A DNA stretch of 35,127 nt from Planctomycetota bacterium (GTDB lineage: Bacteria; Planctomycetota; SZUA-567; H5-PLA8). Of this stretch, positions 1 through 16,898 are shown in pieces. The notes beneath the pieces were generated by a model, which was given only the letters and a program-made list of their open reading frames with translations, did no database searches and was not told where the DNA came from. Location: the NCBI GenBank assembly GCA_038227875.1, contig JBBRPR010000080.1, positions 1 through 35,127 of the forward strand, in the 5' to 3' direction. How positions within the stretch are numbered: the stretch's first letter is position 1; each line of letters opens with the position of its first letter. Both the position numbers and the translations under genes were made by a program.

Positions 1-105
1 CACCCTTGTGCTTCGAAAAAGACTGGCCGACGAATTTCGAACTCTATCTCGTCAGCCGCTGCTCTTGCGATCCTTCATCCAACATACCAAGCTTCCACTG
101 CTCCT

Positions 106-10940: not shown

Positions 10941-13213
10941 TGGCGATTGAATTTGAACGCAGCGCTGCGGGCTTGGCGCAGAAGTCTACGCGAACTCCCG
11001 CGGATTACGTCCGGCAGCTGGAGGATCAGCGGCACCTGCTCACGCCCCTGTTGCGGATTCTGGTTCAGAAGAAGCCCATTCACGCGGCAGATGGGATGGC
11101 CGCGATCTCTGCAAGCCTGCGCAAAGTCAGTGACACGGTACAGGCACAGATGGGCGCTTTTCTGATGGGATCTCCGGAACGACACGAGTTGCAAGTCGTG
11201 GGCGTAGCGCTTTCTTCGCGGTTATTACAGCGCAGTGGCACCCGGACGCAGGAGGATTTGGATAACCTGACTGTGCGGTTGCAGAATCACCCCTTGAGCG
11301 CGAAGGGCTGCGCGGAAGCTCATGCAATCGCGACCGGCATTCTGTGTTGTAATTCCGGTGTCCCCTCCTGCTTCAATGACACCCTTGTCGGCCTGGGGTA
11401 TCCCGTGCAGTCGTTGCTGGTGGCGCCGGTCAAAGGTGGTGGCTCGCACGCGGTAGGGTGCGCCACATTTCTCAACCGCTATGCCAACGACCGCCAGTTC
11501 ACCCACTTTTCGGACGAAGACCTCGCCCTCGTCGAGAGTTTCGCCCGTCACAGCGGTCGCGTAATGGCACGCGTGCTTGAACCGCACACGCCGCTGAACG
11601 ATCACGAACTGGCCGGATACTTCGCGCGTCTGGCGAAGTGCGAATTGATCACCGATCTAAAGCCGGATCTGGCGTTGGTCTCGGCCATTGGCGCGGAGAA
11701 GCTTCGCAGGCATCTCGTCATTCCGCTGGGCAAGTCCGGCTCCACAGCCATCCGTGCCGCGCTCGTCAATCCTTTGGACTTCCAGCGCATCAGCGATTTT
11801 GAAGCGGACGTCGGCCTGCGCATCGAAGAGCGCTGCGTTGCCTCCGAATCCGATATCCGGCAGGCGCTCGAGCATGCATCGCCGCAGAGCTCCCGCGTCT
11901 CGCTGGTGGCCGAACGCATCAGCAAGGAATTCACGGAGATCGTTCCCGACGAGTCGGCGTTCGGCAACGAGAGCAACGAAAACTCCGCGCTGATCATCAA
12001 CCTGGCCAACCGCATCATCGAGGACGCCTTCCAGCTCGGTGCCAGCGACATCCATGTCGAACCAGCCGAGACCAAGCTGGTGATCCGCTACCGCATCGAC
12101 GGCGTCTGCCGCAACAAGCTCTCGCTGCCCTACGCCGCGCACCGGCCGCTGGTGACGCGCCTGAAAATCATGAGCGATCTGGATATCGCCGAACATCGCC
12201 TGCCGCAGGACGGCAAGATTACGTTCAAAAAATTCAGCCCGAAGTACGATGTCGACCTGCGCGTCTCTGTCGCGCCCATGGCTCACGGCGAAGCGGTGGT
12301 GCTGCGTTTGCTGGACAAACAGAAGTCGATGCTGCCCCTCGATCGCCTCGGATTTTCGGACTACAACTTGAAGCTCTACCGCAACATGCTCGCCGCGCCT
12401 TACGGCATGATCCTGCACTGCGGGCCCACGGGCTCGGGCAAGTCGATGACGCTCTACGCGGCGTTGAATGAAATCAACACGCCCGAGTTGAAAGTGCTCA
12501 CCGCCGAAGACCCGATCGAATACACGCTGCCGGGCATCAACCAGCTTCAGGTCAAACGCGACATCGGCCTGACTTTCGCCTCGGCGCTGCGCTGCTTCCT
12601 GCGTCAGGATCCCGACATCATCCTCGTCGGCGAAATCCGCGACAAGGAAACCGCGGAAATCGCCACCGAAGCCGCGCTGACCGGGCACATTCTTTTCTCG
12701 ACGCTGCACACCAACGACGCCTGTTCAACTGTGCTGCGCCTGGGTGAAATCGGTGTCGAATCGTTCCTGATCGCCTCGACGCTGGTCGGCATCTGCGCCC
12801 AGCGCCTGGTACGGCGGCTCTGCTCGTGCAAACAGGATGTGGACGTGACCAGCGACCAGCGGGACCTGCTCCGCCGTGGCACCCGCAACGGACCGCTCGG
12901 CCGGATTTTTGGCCCGGGCGGTTGCGAGAAATGCGAGCAGAGCGGCTACAAGGGCCGCACCGGAGTCCACGAACTGCTGCACGTCACCGATGAACTCCGC
13001 GAGCTGATCAATCGGGGCGTCAATACCGAAACTCTGAAACACAATGCGCGTCGCCTGGGCATGCGCACGCTGTTTGAAGATGTCATGGAAAAAGTGAACG
13101 CCGGCATTACGTCGCTGCCGGAAGCTCTCACCACCGTCTGGCCGGATGAAGAACCGCCGGAGACGTTTGTAAAGGACAACTCAAAGACCCAAGGGGCAGG
13201 AGGCATATCATGA
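10940..13213 (+). CDS. PilB/GspE-family secretion ATPase with N-terminal GAF-like domain
   Basis: ASDIHVEP, RYRIDG, DIAEHRLPQDG, Walker A GPTGSGKS, EDPIEY, LRQDPDIILVGEIRD, STLHTND, Zn site RLCSC...GCEKC. N-terminal SLLVAPV...VGCATFLNR...FSDEDLALVESFA is GAF-like. Confidence 0.92.
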   Translation: MAIEFERSAAGLAQKSTRTPADYVRQLEDQRHLLTPLLRILVQKKPIHAADGMAAISASLRKVSDTVQAQMGAFLMGSPERHELQVVGVALSSRLLQRSGTRTQEDLDNLTVRLQNHPLSAKGCAEAHAIATGILCCNSGVPSCFNDTLVGLGYPVQSLLVAPVKGGGSHAVGCATFLNRYANDRQFTHFSDEDLALVESFARHSGRVMARVLEPHTPLNDHELAGYFARLAKCELITDLKPDLALVSAIGAEKLRRHLVIPLGKSGSTAIRAALVNPLDFQRISDFEADVGLRIEERCVASESDIRQALEHASPQSSRVSLVAERISKEFTEIVPDESAFGNESNENSALIINLANRIIEDAFQLGASDIHVEPAETKLVIRYRIDGVCRNKLSLPYAAHRPLVTRLKIMSDLDIAEHRLPQDGKITFKKFSPKYDVDLRVSVAPMAHGEAVVLRLLDKQKSMLPLDRLGFSDYNLKLYRNMLAAPYGMILHCGPTGSGKSMTLYAALNEINTPELKVLTAEDPIEYTLPGINQLQVKRDIGLTFASALRCFLRQDPDIILVGEIRDKETAEIATEAALTGHILFSTLHTNDACSTVLRLGEIGVESFLIASTLVGICAQRLVRRLCSCKQDVDVTSDQRDLLRRGTRNGPLGRIFGPGGCEKCEQSGYKGRTGVHELLHVTDELRELINRGVNTETLKHNARRLGMRTLFEDVMEKVNAGITSLPEALTTVWPDEEPPETFVKDNSKTQGAGGIS

Positions 13214-14568
13214 CCGCAGAACTTCGAAAAGCCATTCGGCTGCATGTGGATAAAGGTGTCGCGGTGCTGCGTTACTCCGGTTGCCCACCGTTCGCCTGCC
13301 CGCTGCAGGATTTAAGCGACAGTGGTTGCCAGTGCGAAGTGTCACTGGACAGCATCGATGCGGAAACGGCCAGGCAGTGGACTGCGCTGCTCAAGCCCGG
13401 ACTGCGGCTGAGCGTGAACATCACGCGCCCCCCGGCATTCGTCAGCTTTGAATTGATGGGTGATTTGACCCACGTCGAAGCCATGGGGCCACACAAGCTG
13501 AACCTGGGCATCCGCTTCCTGCCCATCAACAGCCAGGTCGACCTGCTGAAAAAGGGCGTGCTGGCCATCGCGATGGAGAAACTGCAGACACCCACCTCGA
13601 CGTTGCCGACGGGAGAACCGTCTGGCGATTCCGACCTGGTGGTCTCCGACGCCCATCATCCCCACGATGCGGCGCAAGCGGGAAAACCCGCGGGTGAGCA
13701 CATCCATCATCACAAGAACCCGCCGCTCAGCGATATTCTCGTGGATCGCGGCCGGCTGACCAAGGCCGCCGCTCACGCGGCGCACAAGGAAGCCACGGCA
13801 ACGAACACCAGCATCACGCGCTTCCTGATCAAGAATCGTTCCGTGAAGCCCCTGGATCTCTGCCAGGCGCTGGCGATTCAGTCCGGGCTGCCCACCACGC
13901 GGCTGGAGGGCGTGGACGTTCCCCTGGCGCTGCGCAAGGTCTTCTCTTTCCTGACCATGCAGCGCTACGAAATCGTGCCGTTCTCGGAATCCCGTGAGAT
14001 GATGTGCATCGCTGCCGCGCATCCACTCACCGACATGGCTCGCATGGAACTGGAGAAACTGGCCAAGCGCAATCTGCTGGTCTTCCTGGCCCCGATCGAT
14101 CAGATCCAGGATCTCCAATTCCGGATCCGGCCGCGCGGACCCAACCAGGAACGCCGCCATGCGCGCGTCAAGATTGCCGTTCACGCCGACTATCAATTCT
14201 GCGACGAGCACGGTGTAAATCTCGACGAGACTGTGCGCGAAGGCATCGTGGAGAACATGAGCGATGGCGGCTTCCTTATCGTCGGCCCTGTCGAGACGGC
14301 GCATTCAGCCAACGAATTGGTGCGGCAGGGTTCCTGCCTGCGTATCGGTTTCCTCTGTGGAGAACGATCGATTCACGCCATCTGCAAGATCCGCCACATT
14401 GAACCGGCACCAGCGGTTCCAGAAGGTGGCCAGAAGCAGTGGCATTTCGGCCTGGAGATCGCCCAGGTGGAACCGGAAGACCTGAACCAGTTGAAGGACG
14501 CCTGCGCCCGCTCGACGATGGACCAGATGAAGAAGCGCAGCCGTGGCTTCAATCCCGACGAGCAGTAA
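13210..14568 (+). CDS. PilZ - MshEN(T2SSE_N)-like - PilZ domain protein, probable c-di-GMP receptor
   Basis: N-terminal RKAIR...DLSDSG and C-terminal RRHAR...NMSDGG match PilZ RxxxR and D/NxSxxG. Central LSDILVDRGRLT...LCQALAIQSGLP...RYEIVPF...IAAAHPL resembles the GspE N-terminal MshEN domain. ATGA overlap with the ATPase. Confidence 0.75.
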   Translation: MTAELRKAIRLHVDKGVAVLRYSGCPPFACPLQDLSDSGCQCEVSLDSIDAETARQWTALLKPGLRLSVNITRPPAFVSFELMGDLTHVEAMGPHKLNLGIRFLPINSQVDLLKKGVLAIAMEKLQTPTSTLPTGEPSGDSDLVVSDAHHPHDAAQAGKPAGEHIHHHKNPPLSDILVDRGRLTKAAAHAAHKEATATNTSITRFLIKNRSVKPLDLCQALAIQSGLPTTRLEGVDVPLALRKVFSFLTMQRYEIVPFSESREMMCIAAAHPLTDMARMELEKLAKRNLLVFLAPIDQIQDLQFRIRPRGPNQERRHARVKIAVHADYQFCDEHGVNLDETVREGIVENMSDGGFLIVGPVETAHSANELVRQGSCLRIGFLCGERSIHAICKIRHIEPAPAVPEGGQKQWHFGLEIAQVEPEDLNQLKDACARSTMDQMKKRSRGFNPDEQ

Positions 14569-14641: not shown

Positions 14642-15856
14642 TTACTTGCGCTTCACCAGCTTCTTGCTGGTGCTGCCGACGCCGACGATCACCTTGCGGT
14701 GTGCGTCTGCCTTCAGCGCCTCGGCCTTGTCCGTCTTCTCCCAGGTGAAGTTCGGGAGGTTGCGGCCGAAGTGGCCATTGCGGGCCGTTTCCAGGTAGAT
14801 CGGGCGGCGCAGGTTCAGGTGTTCGATGATCGCGCGCGGGCGGAAGTCGAAGTGCTTGCGCACCAGCTTCGAAATCTGCTCTTCGTCGATCTTCGACGTA
14901 CCCTTGGTGTCAACCAGCACGCTCACCGGTTCGGCGACGCCAATCGCGTACGCGACCTGGACCTGGGCTTCTTCGGCCAGGTCGGCGGCGACGATGTTCT
15001 TGGCGACGTAGCGGGCGAAGTACGCGGCGCTGCGGTCGACCTTCGTCGGATCCTTGCCCGAGAACGCGCCTCCGCCGTGCGGGGCGTAGCCGCCGTACGT
15101 GTCGACGATGATCTTGCGTCCGGTCAGTCCGCAGTCGCCGTGCGGTCCGCCGATTTCAAAGCGGCCCGTCGGGTTGACGTGGTAGATCGTGTCCTTGTCG
15201 AGCAACGCGGCGGGAATCGACTTCTTGACGATCTTTTCGATCGTGTCGCGCTTGAGCACGTCCTGCTTGCTGTTCATTTCCGGCGTGTGCTGCAGGCTGA
15301 CGACGACGGTGTGCACGCGGACCGGCTTGCGGCCCTCGTATTCGATCGTGACCTGGCACTTGCCGTCCGGGCGCAGGTACTTGAGTTCGCCGCTGCGGCG
15401 AATGTCAAAGGCGCGTTCGGAGATGGCGTGGGCCAGCGAGATCGGCAGCGGCATCAGCGACTTGGTGTCGCGGTTGGCGTAGCCAAACATCATGCCCTGG
15501 TCGCCGGCGCCCATTTCCTTCTTGGGGCCTTCGTCGACACCGCGGGCAATGTCCGCCGACTGGCGGTCGAGCGAGACCATCACGGCGCACGAATTGGCGT
15601 CAAAGCCCATCCGCGGGTCCACGTATCCAATATCGCTGACCACTTTGCGAACGATATCGGGGATGTGGACGTACGTGTTGGTGGTGACTTCACCGGCGAT
15701 GACCGCGACTCCGGTCGTGACCAGCGTTTCGCAGGCCACGCGCGACAGCGGGTCGTCTTTCAACATCGCGTCGAGAATGGCGTCCGAGATCTGATCGGCG
15801 ACCTTGTCCGGATGACCCGGAAACACGGACTCCGATGTAAACAGCGTGCGAGACAT
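14642..15856 (-). CDS. metK: S-adenosylmethionine synthetase
   Basis: [64 protein letters not shown]. Confidence 0.97.
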
Positions 15857-15990
15857 GTTGCTCCCTTCATTTGTACGGGTGAGTGATCGGGATTGCGGCA
15901 ACTTCACCGCGCCTCACCAAAGGAGAAAACTGCCAGCCGGTATCCAGACCTCCCCCATCCGGAACGGCTTCCTGCAACACGCAGGGTTAC
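15857..15990 (-). ncRNA. Structured 5' leader of metK, candidate translational riboswitch
   Basis: Several stems plus an anti-SD (CUCCUUU) that can pair either with the SD or with a G-rich hairpin loop; details in findings. Confidence 0.55.
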
Positions 15991-16073
15991 GAACCGTAAA
16001 AATTCCGCGTGGCAGGCTTGAAACAAATTAGCCCTTTGCCGGCGCTGAATAGTTCACGGCTCGAAATTTGGTC

Positions 16074-16898
16074 TTACAATACCAGGTCCAGAGTTTGTGC
16101 GGCGTAGTGATGGCTGGCGACCACCTGCTGTGCCAGCGTCTTGCTGCCCTTCTCGAGTTCCACCGTTGCCCAGCCGGAGAATTCAGCGGCCAGCAGCGTG
16201 TCTACGAACTCTTCAAGGTCCAGCATGCCCTTCCCGAGTTCGACGGTCTGGAACTTGGAATCTTCGCCCTTTTTCTTTTTTCCGGTCGCAGGCTTGATGT
16301 CGCGCAAATGGACCGCGCCGATGCGCTTCTTGTGTTCCTTGATGAACTTCGCGGCGGGAATCTCGGCCTGCGCCAGGAACCCGACGTCCACGCACAATCG
16401 CATCGCGCTGGCGTCGGAATGTTCGATGAATTTCTCGAGCGACTTCTGATCGTAGACCAGCGTGCCGATCTCCGGATGGAGGCAGGCCATGATCCCGAGC
16501 TCTTCGGTCCGGCGCGCAATTTCGCCGTACGCCGTGGCCACGGGGATCAGGTCCGTTTCGTCTTCGATCGGCTGATCGGGATTCGGGCGCGGCGGCATCA
16601 GCGTCAGAATCTTGGCATTCGCGGACTTCAGGAAGCGGACGATGTTGAGGCTGCGTTCGACTTCCTCTTCCAGGCTCATCCCCGGCCACATCGCGCCGCC
16701 GGAAGTGATCGCCACCAGATGCATCTGGTGCTGGACGAGAATTTCGTTGAATACCTCGACCCGGTCCTCGAATTGTTCGACGACGCCGGTCGTGGTCTCA
16801 ATGCCTTTAAAGCCCGCCTTTTCAATGTCGGAAAGCGCATTGATAAAGCGATCATCGCCCCACGCGGAGGTGTGGCAAGCCAGTTCAATGTCGGCCAT
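16074..16898 (-). CDS. Sugar phosphate isomerase/epimerase (IolE-like TIM barrel)
   Basis: AGFKGIE, CLHPEIGT, LCVDVGF, AVHLRDI, ELGKGMLD, GWATVELE. Confidence 0.85.
   Translation of the reverse strand: MADIELACHTSAWGDDRFINALSDIEKAGFKGIETTTGVVEQFEDRVEVFNEILVQHQMHLVAITSGGAMWPGMSLEEEVERSLNIVRFLKSANAKILTLMPPRPNPDQPIEDETDLIPVATAYGEIARRTEELGIMACLHPEIGTLVYDQKSLEKFIEHSDASAMRLCVDVGFLAQAEIPAAKFIKEHKKRIGAVHLRDIKPATGKKKKGEDSKFQTVELGKGMLDLEEFVDTLLAAEFSGWATVELEKGSKTLAQQVVASHHYAAQTLDLVL

Follow-up and report, generated by a model that had tools for sequence, protein, structure and literature searches.

Does the leader of metK in this Planctomycetota bacterium contain an RNA that senses SAM, and if so, does that RNA belong to one of the classes already catalogued? 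Leaders of metK, the gene for SAM synthetase, are described as the usual home of SAM riboswitches, and the metK riboswitches as SAM-responsive OFF switches (PMC2864571, PMC6914780). The window, by which we mean the whole stretch of 35,127 nt that was analysed, had earlier been read by eye as carrying a new or divergent SAM-responsive switch that acts on metK translation and is assembled from five leader elements (the original prediction). We examined this leader through its relatives in genomes and metagenomes, its covariation, its predicted folds and its resemblance to known RNA families.

The metK locus and its leader

The open reading frame at 14642..15856 (minus strand) encodes a protein of 404 amino acids with the three domains S-AdoMet_synt_N, _M and _C (Pfam E = 2.5e-42 to 1.1e-68), which confirms its assignment as metK. 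Its AUG lies at 15856 (minus strand), and a spacer of 217 nt separates it from the upstream neighbour, a gene for a xylose-isomerase-like TIM-barrel protein (16074-16898). The gene is monocistronic, since the next one downstream (13210-14568, plus strand) is convergent to it. The product of that convergent gene, 452 aa long, has a PilZ domain at its N-terminus and also an MshEN domain. The 217-nt spacer contains all five elements that had been proposed, each of them present where it had been placed when the minus strand is read.

The core of the element runs from a first hairpin (P1) through a conserved CGUAC, and this stretch is matched by two covariance models, R1 and R2, at 15873..15975 (minus strand, as are all leader coordinates that follow). 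P1 (15935..15969), which is the long hairpin (ii) of the original prediction, has 5 + 6 pairs in the window and 11 continuous pairs in most relatives; its loop, UGGGGGAGG (block A, 15957-15949), resembles a Shine-Dalgarno (SD) sequence and includes the stretch GGGGGAGG. From P1, a mostly U-rich linker of 7–11 nt leads to the invariant strand UCUCCUUU, a mimic of the anti-SD sequence, which is followed immediately by the second hairpin, P2, and then by CGUAC. The anti-SD-like block UCUCCUUUGG (block B) occupies 15917..15926, its final GG supplying the first two pairs of P2 and U residues standing ahead of it at 15927-15929; the pyrimidine tract UUCUCCUUU spans 15927-15919. P2 (15878..15918) has the base GGUGAG/CUCACC, formed by the predicted stem (iv), in which GGUGAG (15918-15913) pairs with CUCACC (15883-15878) to enclose GCGG/CCGC. 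Directly 3' of P2, CGUAC (15873..15877) is single-stranded, and inspection by eye found no pairing partner for it that holds across the sequences. The true SD sequence, AAGGGAG (15861..15867), is located 4 nt before the AUG and can pair with CUCCUUU at 15925-15919. In the version with the shortest P2 the whole element measures about 90 nt. P2 ranges from 27 to 75 nt (16 leaders), which is the behaviour of a peripheral stem, and the spacing from CGUAC to the SD sequence also varies among leaders, from 8 to 16 nt.

Distribution of the element

MetK was detected in 39 of 41 genomes, and metK with its flanks was taken from 30 relatives. The leader motif is present at seven of these 30 loci (L001, which is the window, L002-L005, L007 and L008), which come from four genera of one Planctomycetota family. 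Model R1, built from four leaders and searched against 101 genomes, returned matches at E <= 0.003 in those seven genomes only, one in each and always upstream of metK, and its remaining matches reached <= 27.8 bits with E >= 0.02; on the window leader it scored 32.9 bits (E = 0.0026 against the whole genome). Model R2, built from 17 distinct sequences, scored 54.4 bits on the window leader (E = 3.7e-9), the sole match in the 9.3-Mb genome. It matched 7 of 62 genomes of the class, all of them within family f1 (7 of 17 genomes), and across the phylum a single one of the 151 sampled genomes, the window's own.

Two exact-pattern scans widened the range. The first covered 185,579 species, as the tool describes its set, with a single genome for each, and found 14 loci, six of which are genomes already known; the other eight were set aside as having neither P1, P2, CGUAC nor metK, and look like chance occurrences, about eight being expected by a hand estimate. 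In metagenome contigs the scan found 61 loci, 15 of them real, and 14 of these 15 sit directly before the N-terminus of a MetK protein. The other 46 were rejected for lack of the other features; L079 and L105 are among them and carry a chance CCGTAC. Ten distinct metagenome sequences were new (L075, L077, L078, L089, L092, L098, L102, L108, L119 and L133), and together with seven from genomes of the one Planctomycetota family they make up the 17 distinct versions of the element, 10 of which were found with a pattern that requires the loop and the anti-SD block and 7 by way of MetK and the models. According to the record titles, the carriers belong to Planctomycetota.

In the genome searches with R1 and R2, the motif was found on no gene besides metK, such as ahcY or metH. 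From the genome and metagenome searches together, we conclude that the element is narrow in range, single-copy in each genome and specific to metK. Conservation in related metK leaders, on which the original prediction had staked itself, is thus borne out: the element is kept, in 17 distinct versions, always directly upstream of metK.

Three other loci deserve mention. L121, a metagenome locus on the minus strand, is near-identical to the window until a point inside P2, where it passes into unrelated GC-rich sequence with no metK; it may reflect a chimeric assembly or a rearrangement by which the leader was cut, and as a likely case of one or the other it was excluded from the 17. At L006 (genome G005, 83% complete) the gene order is that of the window, with the TIM-barrel gene and a metK of 83% identity, and the spacer of about 75 nt has no motif, which suggests that this lineage lost it. 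L021, from an unpublished relative genome (G017) without the motif, enters the negative counts only.

Promoters and the 5' end of the transcript

A sigma-70-like promoter of the pattern TTGNNN-16..18-TANNNT ends 15–25 nt upstream of P1 in 14 of the 17 leaders. Because this predicted promoter lies upstream of P1, the whole element would be placed in the 5' UTR, and because it ends so close to P1, there would be no room for a further sensor upstream. The same pattern has no match in the window leader (L001), its close relative L119 or L007, and a promoter scan of the window's minus strand recognised none. Two RNA-library contigs overlap the leader, X16 record 7 (15830-16000) and X4 record 28 (15937-16118, reaching into the upstream gene); such contigs show neither starts nor strand, and DNA may be present in these libraries.

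The most upstream of the proposed elements, hairpin (i) with the sequence CCUGC-GUGUU-GCAGG (15971..15985), fared less well than the others. It is present in the window and in L119, has a weaker form in L002 and L003, and is absent from the g10-type leaders. In the leaders that have this hairpin, its 5' strand abuts the predicted -10 box; this strand probably lies upstream of the transcription start and is not transcribed. Because of its absence from the g10-type leaders and its position against the -10 box, we rejected hairpin (i) as a core element and regard it as optional and outside the conserved core: it exists in the window, but it is not a conserved helix of the RNA. The supposition that transcription starts upstream of the hairpins therefore stands in part, carried by the predicted promoters in most leaders, but not by any promoter match in the window and probably not for the 5' strand of hairpin (i).

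Most of the 17 leaders also share a short conserved stretch, UUG.A.G(N)U, close to P1 on its 5' side, for example as UUGCAGG, UUGAAG or UUGACG. It lies at 15971-15982 in the window and within the equivalent 10–15 nt 5' of P1 elsewhere. Inspection by eye found no consistent pairing partner for it, and it may be part of the early transcribed region or of the RNA core.

Conservation and covariation

Both conserved hairpins are well supported by their pairing, by double changes and by comparison with shuffled alignments. In alignment A5, in which the 17 distinct sequences were fitted to the model (a caveat for all covariation figures), 96.3% of cells form standard pairs, and double changes, 31 cells in all, affect 11 of the 19 pairs. 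None of 500 shuffles reached any of the five measures of pairing and covariation, and when the partners were slid by 1–3 columns, <= 52% of cells remained paired. In P1 (helices 1 and 2), double changes occur in 7 of 11 pairs and 95–98% of cells pair; at the base of P2 (helix 3), they occur in 3 of 5 pairs, with 96.5% of cells paired and the first two G-C pairs nearly invariant. The covariation that had been anticipated for stems (ii) and (iv) is thus found in both, as compensatory change. An RNA-library contig carries a further variant of P2, in which the pairs 15916/15880 and 15915/15881 change from U-A to C-G and from G-C to A-U; with a depth of 4.1, it lends weak support.

Unlike the stems, which vary, the unpaired blocks are invariant. 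Loop UGGGGGAGG is identical in 16 of the 17 leaders, the exception being L005, where the last letter changes from G to A (GGGGGAGA), and block UCUCCUUUGG is identical in all 17; this invariance of loop and anti-SD strand is an unbiased measure for seven leaders only, the other 10 having been selected by a pattern that demands both blocks. CGUAC is present in 16 of 17 and is replaced by a different sequence in L077. The three mutually exclusive strands that had been proposed, SD-like and anti-SD-like, form the most conserved part of the element.

L077 is the most divergent of the leaders. It keeps P1, the loop and UCUCCUUUGG, its U-run is changed to UUAAG, its P2 is different, CGUAC is absent, and metK follows. 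Read from its sequence, this leader shows which parts are likely to be the least dispensable.

Fold energy was rejected as evidence for the element, since it is not significant: for the 229-nt intergenic region z is -1.73, and 13 of 200 shuffles reach an equally good fold. With so unremarkable an energy, the claim that the structure exceeds chance rests on conservation and covariation.

Competing pairings of the pyrimidine tract

The tract can pair either with the loop of P1 or with the SD sequence, and these pairings exclude each other, as had been proposed. In the window, the duplex of tract and loop has 8 pairs (4 of them G-U) and a predicted energy of -8.5 kcal/mol, against 7 pairs and -7.7 kcal/mol for the duplex of tract and SD. 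Across the leaders, the pairing with the loop consists of 8 pairs (three G-U, G-C, G-C, A-U, G-C and G-U; -8.1 to -9.5 kcal/mol) and that with the SD sequence of 5–7 pairs (-5.6 to -8.2 kcal/mol). The region 5' of GGAG, which is the partner of the tract in the SD-paired state, varies among AAA, AAG, AUA, CC and GC.

Pairing with the loop would create a pseudoknot, for which covariation had also been anticipated. Seven of its eight pairs are the same in every leader and the remaining one shows a one-sided change; in L005, the change of the loop G to A turns a G-U pair of the pseudoknot into A-U. With seven pairs invariant, covariation neither supports nor rejects the pseudoknot. By our estimate, the pseudoknot looks sterically reasonable, with 1 nt before it in the loop and the linker of 7–11 nt crossing P1.

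In the minimum free energy (MFE) fold of the window's spacer, the tract is paired with the SD sequence. The same pairing appears in the unconstrained MFE fold of 9 of the 17 leaders and is predicted in 10 of 17 when the loop is held open. Its net gain spans 0 (in three leaders) to -4.8 kcal/mol around a median of -2.0, and with the anti-SD strand blocked, 16 of 17 predictions still show the SD sequence partly paired to other regions. The pseudoknot lies outside what ViennaRNA can score and the gain from pairing with the SD sequence is small and uneven, so that neither the default state nor the polarity of the putative switch is derivable from these energies. The predicted thermodynamics fit a finely balanced switch that would need an extra input, and fall short of proof of one.

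Two observations on neighbouring leaders concern the same region. In L002, L003 and L133, a local hairpin (GCUCU-GAAA-GGAGC) between CGUAC and the AUG can mask the SD sequence, which adds a third competitor in that sub-group only. L013 and L014, from genus g7, have no motif, and in both a pyrimidine tract lies directly before a purine-rich SD sequence, CUUCUCUCCUCUGGGGAAAGGAA, some 30 nt ahead of the AUG. To mask the SD sequence of metK may be a wider habit in the family.

Comparison with known riboswitch families

The absence of a known SAM or SAH class, which the original prediction had asserted by eye, was confirmed with cmscan: no family of Rfam 15 (4227 families) matched the window at its gathering score, SAM-I, -II, -III, -V and -VI, SAM/SAH and SAH included. 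At E <= 10 over 15700-16200, the only matches were mir-2007 (E = 3.2) and P17 (E = 4.3), both of them noise. The SAM-I (S-box) model, RF00162, had no match in the window, and its positive controls matched in 3 of 14 control genomes. SAM-II (RF00521) and SAM-V (RF01826) had no match in the window or in the whole genome, and nor did SAM-VI (RF02885), SAM/SAH (RF01727) or the SAH riboswitch (RF01057); SAM-III (RF01767) likewise had zero matches in both, and for each of these six models the 14 control genomes were also without a positive. At the metK loci that have no motif, 20 of 23 of which were scanned with Rfam (L014, L029 and L030 being left out), the only match is one tRNA; hence none of these 20 has a known riboswitch in place of the motif.

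SAM-I riboswitches do occur in these organisms. The sole one in the window's genome (G000) lies on contig C12 at 91580-91750 (plus strand; locus L136, 59.9 bits) and precedes a gene for a 477-aa PLP-dependent enzyme (Pfam PALP, E = 6e-71). SAM-I scored above the cut-off in 9 of the 17 genomes of the family, among them five of the seven motif carriers, and never at metK. Judging from these sequences, the organisms would seem to sense SAM with RNA but to control metK differently.

A literature search that stopped short of supplementary motif lists, such as the one with the Rhodopirellula-1 motif (PMC2864571), found no description of the element, in Planctomycetota or elsewhere. Rhodopirellula-1 has no Rfam number; the motif predates all genomes that carry the metK element.

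Among known elements, the functionally nearest are SAM-III and SAM-VI, which are translational, occur on metK and use SD/anti-SD pairing. With SAM-III the metK element would share metK-specific control of translation. The SMK box is ordered as anti-SD strand, internal hairpin, single-stranded linker and SD sequence, and the SD-paired state of the window's tract has the same order. SAM-III is nevertheless described as a three-stem junction in which the SD sequence joins P1 and P3 (PMC6914780), whereas for the predicted SD-paired state of the window two helices can be drawn, that of tract and SD sequence and P2; the 13–21 nt between P2 and the SD sequence show no conserved third helix. SAM-III, like SAM-VI, has the SD sequence built into the junction (PMC6914780), in contrast to its variable distance here, and our element has an extra 5' hairpin with an SD-mimic loop. 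The hosts differ as well, Firmicutes for SAM-III (PMC6914780) and Planctomycetota for the metK element. SAM-VI also occurs on metK and involves the SD sequence, and in its model folding involves competition from an alternative 5' stem, P0 (PMC6914780), analogous to the contest here of the P1 loop and the SD sequence for one strand. It is, however, a three-way junction with the AUG inside P1, found in Bifidobacterium (PMC6914780), and its conserved nucleotides are not those of the metK element.

In shape, the nearest classes are those with an H-type pseudoknot, SAM-II, SAM-V and SAM/SAH. In these, the partner of the loop is a 3' strand that contains or adjoins the SD sequence, so that the pseudoknot hides it. 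Here, by contrast, the SD-like loop would pair with an anti-SD-like strand and the pseudoknot would free the SD sequence. Since the hairpin loop mimics the SD sequence instead of pairing with it, the proposed switching logic is unlike that of the pseudoknot SAM classes. What they have in common with the metK element, as it is proposed here, is a small size, a hairpin loop that pairs with a downstream strand and control of translation (PMC7367207, PMC6061858), and SAM/SAH, reported only upstream of metK in one order, has a comparably narrow range (PMC2864571).

Discussion

The leader of metK in this family is very probably a functional cis-regulatory RNA. It shows the features by which riboswitches are generally recognised, in that a conserved, covarying and structured RNA lies in the predicted 5' UTR of a gene tied to one metabolite, and we regard it as a candidate riboswitch, with putative ligand sensing, of a class not yet catalogued. 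We propose that the anti-SD-like strand would pair either with the loop of P1, giving an H-type pseudoknot that is stacked on P2 and leaves the true SD sequence open, or with the SD sequence itself, in which case binding of the 30S subunit would be blocked. A small molecule might tip the balance between these pairings and so set the translation of metK. The ligand would most likely be SAM or a close relative such as SAH, given that metK is the only gene controlled. That the leader is a translational riboswitch which responds to SAM or a close relative through this competition of strands is our preferred reading, to which we assign slightly less than an even chance.

Sensing of SAM is plausible by analogy with other metK leaders, and for SAM repression would be expected, that is, stabilisation of the state in which the tract pairs with the SD sequence. 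Where pseudoknot and P2 join, the invariant features of the element come together, namely the three G-U pairs, CGUAC and the two G-C pairs at the base of P2. Since this invariant junction exists in the pseudoknot state only, the form with ligand bound could be ON; the proposed structure suggests that the structured form, which may be the one that binds a ligand, is the pseudoknot with the SD sequence left free. To our knowledge, a ligand that activates metK would be unusual for SAM and for this gene. Against our preferred reading count the presence of SAM-I elsewhere in five of the seven motif genomes, the pairing of tract and SD sequence in no more than 9 of 17 unconstrained folds and with a small median gain, the variable distance to the SD sequence and the lack of a promoter match in the window.

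It is also possible, with a probability that we would set somewhat lower than even, that among riboswitches for SAM or a compound related to it the leader opens a further structural family, as its first member and with a competition of three strands that is unseen in the known SAM classes. The SD-mimic loop and the true SD sequence would then compete for a single strand that mimics the anti-SD sequence, and the pocket for the ligand would be placed where the pseudoknot, P2 and CGUAC come together. Such an element could be an ON switch for metK or could bind a ligand other than SAM.

The same architecture might do without a small-molecule ligand, as a constitutive adjustment of metK translation or of mRNA stability, or as an RNA thermometer: the anti-SD strand would damp the SD sequence, the SD-mimic loop would buffer the damping, and the 5' hairpin would protect the mRNA. 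The predicted net energies of the competing states are indeed small and close, the motif-less metK leaders of other genera (L013 and L014) likewise set pyrimidine tracts beside purine-rich SD sequences, the sub-group of L002, L003 and L133 has its local hairpin over the SD sequence, and the constraint that SD/anti-SD recognition by the ribosome would place on the three strands could explain their invariance. In fourU and ROSE thermometers and other ligand-free leaders, too, a strand rich in U and C masks the SD sequence. Little sequence conservation, however, is usual in thermometers and simple damping hairpins, whereas about 25 unpaired nucleotides of the metK element, including CGUAC and the P2 base, are invariant across lineages in which the stems have changed much, and the element is limited to one gene. 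Its longer-range loop competitor, its variable P2 with a conserved base and its CGUAC set it further apart from fourU and ROSE, and we consider a role without ligand fairly unlikely. Invariant single-stranded blocks are equally typical of leaders that bind proteins, such as those of ribosomal-protein genes, and MetK itself, by autoregulation, or another RNA-binding protein might recognise the P1 loop, the junction and CGUAC and thereby shift the anti-SD strand. A G-rich hairpin with CUCCUUU some 10 nt behind it is, we presume, an arrangement loosely like the 3' end of 16S rRNA with helix 45 and the anti-SD sequence, and a rhizobial SAM synthetase is reported to bind diverse RNAs (PMC8244774). 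Such a protein is nonetheless purely hypothetical in these genomes, and the size and pseudoknot potential of the element suit small riboswitch aptamers just as well; a protein effector thus appears unlikely to us.

The direction of the switch may be the reverse of that expected for SAM, if a different ligand, such as SAH or methionine, fixes pseudoknot, P2 junction and CGUAC in place, so that the anti-SD strand is held off the SD sequence and metK is switched on as demand for SAM grows. The convergence of all invariant features on the pseudoknot/P2 junction would agree with this, as would the variability of the tract's partner 5' of GGAG and a distance to the SD sequence that is not fixed; moreover, the loop and the anti-SD strand are transcribed before the SD sequence, so that the pseudoknot would be expected to form first. 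We judge an ON switch of this kind quite unlikely, however, as every validated metK riboswitch that we know of is a SAM-responsive OFF switch, and in the genomes searched the motif lies on no other gene such as ahcY or metH. Finally, P1 and the U-run could be read as a device for intrinsic termination or attenuation, or the AUG within the P1 loop as the start of a leader peptide. GC-rich P1 is followed in 16 of 17 leaders by 4–7 U that begin 4–7 nt later, and 15 of 17 retain the reading frame that starts at the loop AUG and spans the anti-SD block. A terminator scan, with a tool that allows loops of 3–8 nt (that of P1 has 9), nevertheless found none in the window, the U-run stands apart from the stem and is absent in L077, and the short distance from promoter to P1 would leave an attenuator no place for its sensor; on these grounds we rejected termination. 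The putative peptide was rejected as well: its length runs from 7 to 58 aa, L001 and L077 interrupt its frame, the residues that vary in it track the compensatory changes of the RNA, and no SD sequence precedes the loop AUG. Either of these explanations is highly improbable.

Sensing of SAM or a close relative through competition for the anti-SD-like strand remains the reading that we prefer, at the tentative strength given above, and the small size and clear-cut parts of the element make it easy to test in vitro. SAM riboswitches are described as the most varied group, each class offering another way to recognise the cofactor against SAH (PMC6914780), and if the metK element binds SAM, it would add a new fold to them. 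If it binds another ligand, or if metK is activated, the picture of how SAM synthesis is controlled would change. In either case, an RNA of such narrow spread supports the expectation that many rare riboswitch classes with a limited range remain in lineages represented by metagenomes only.
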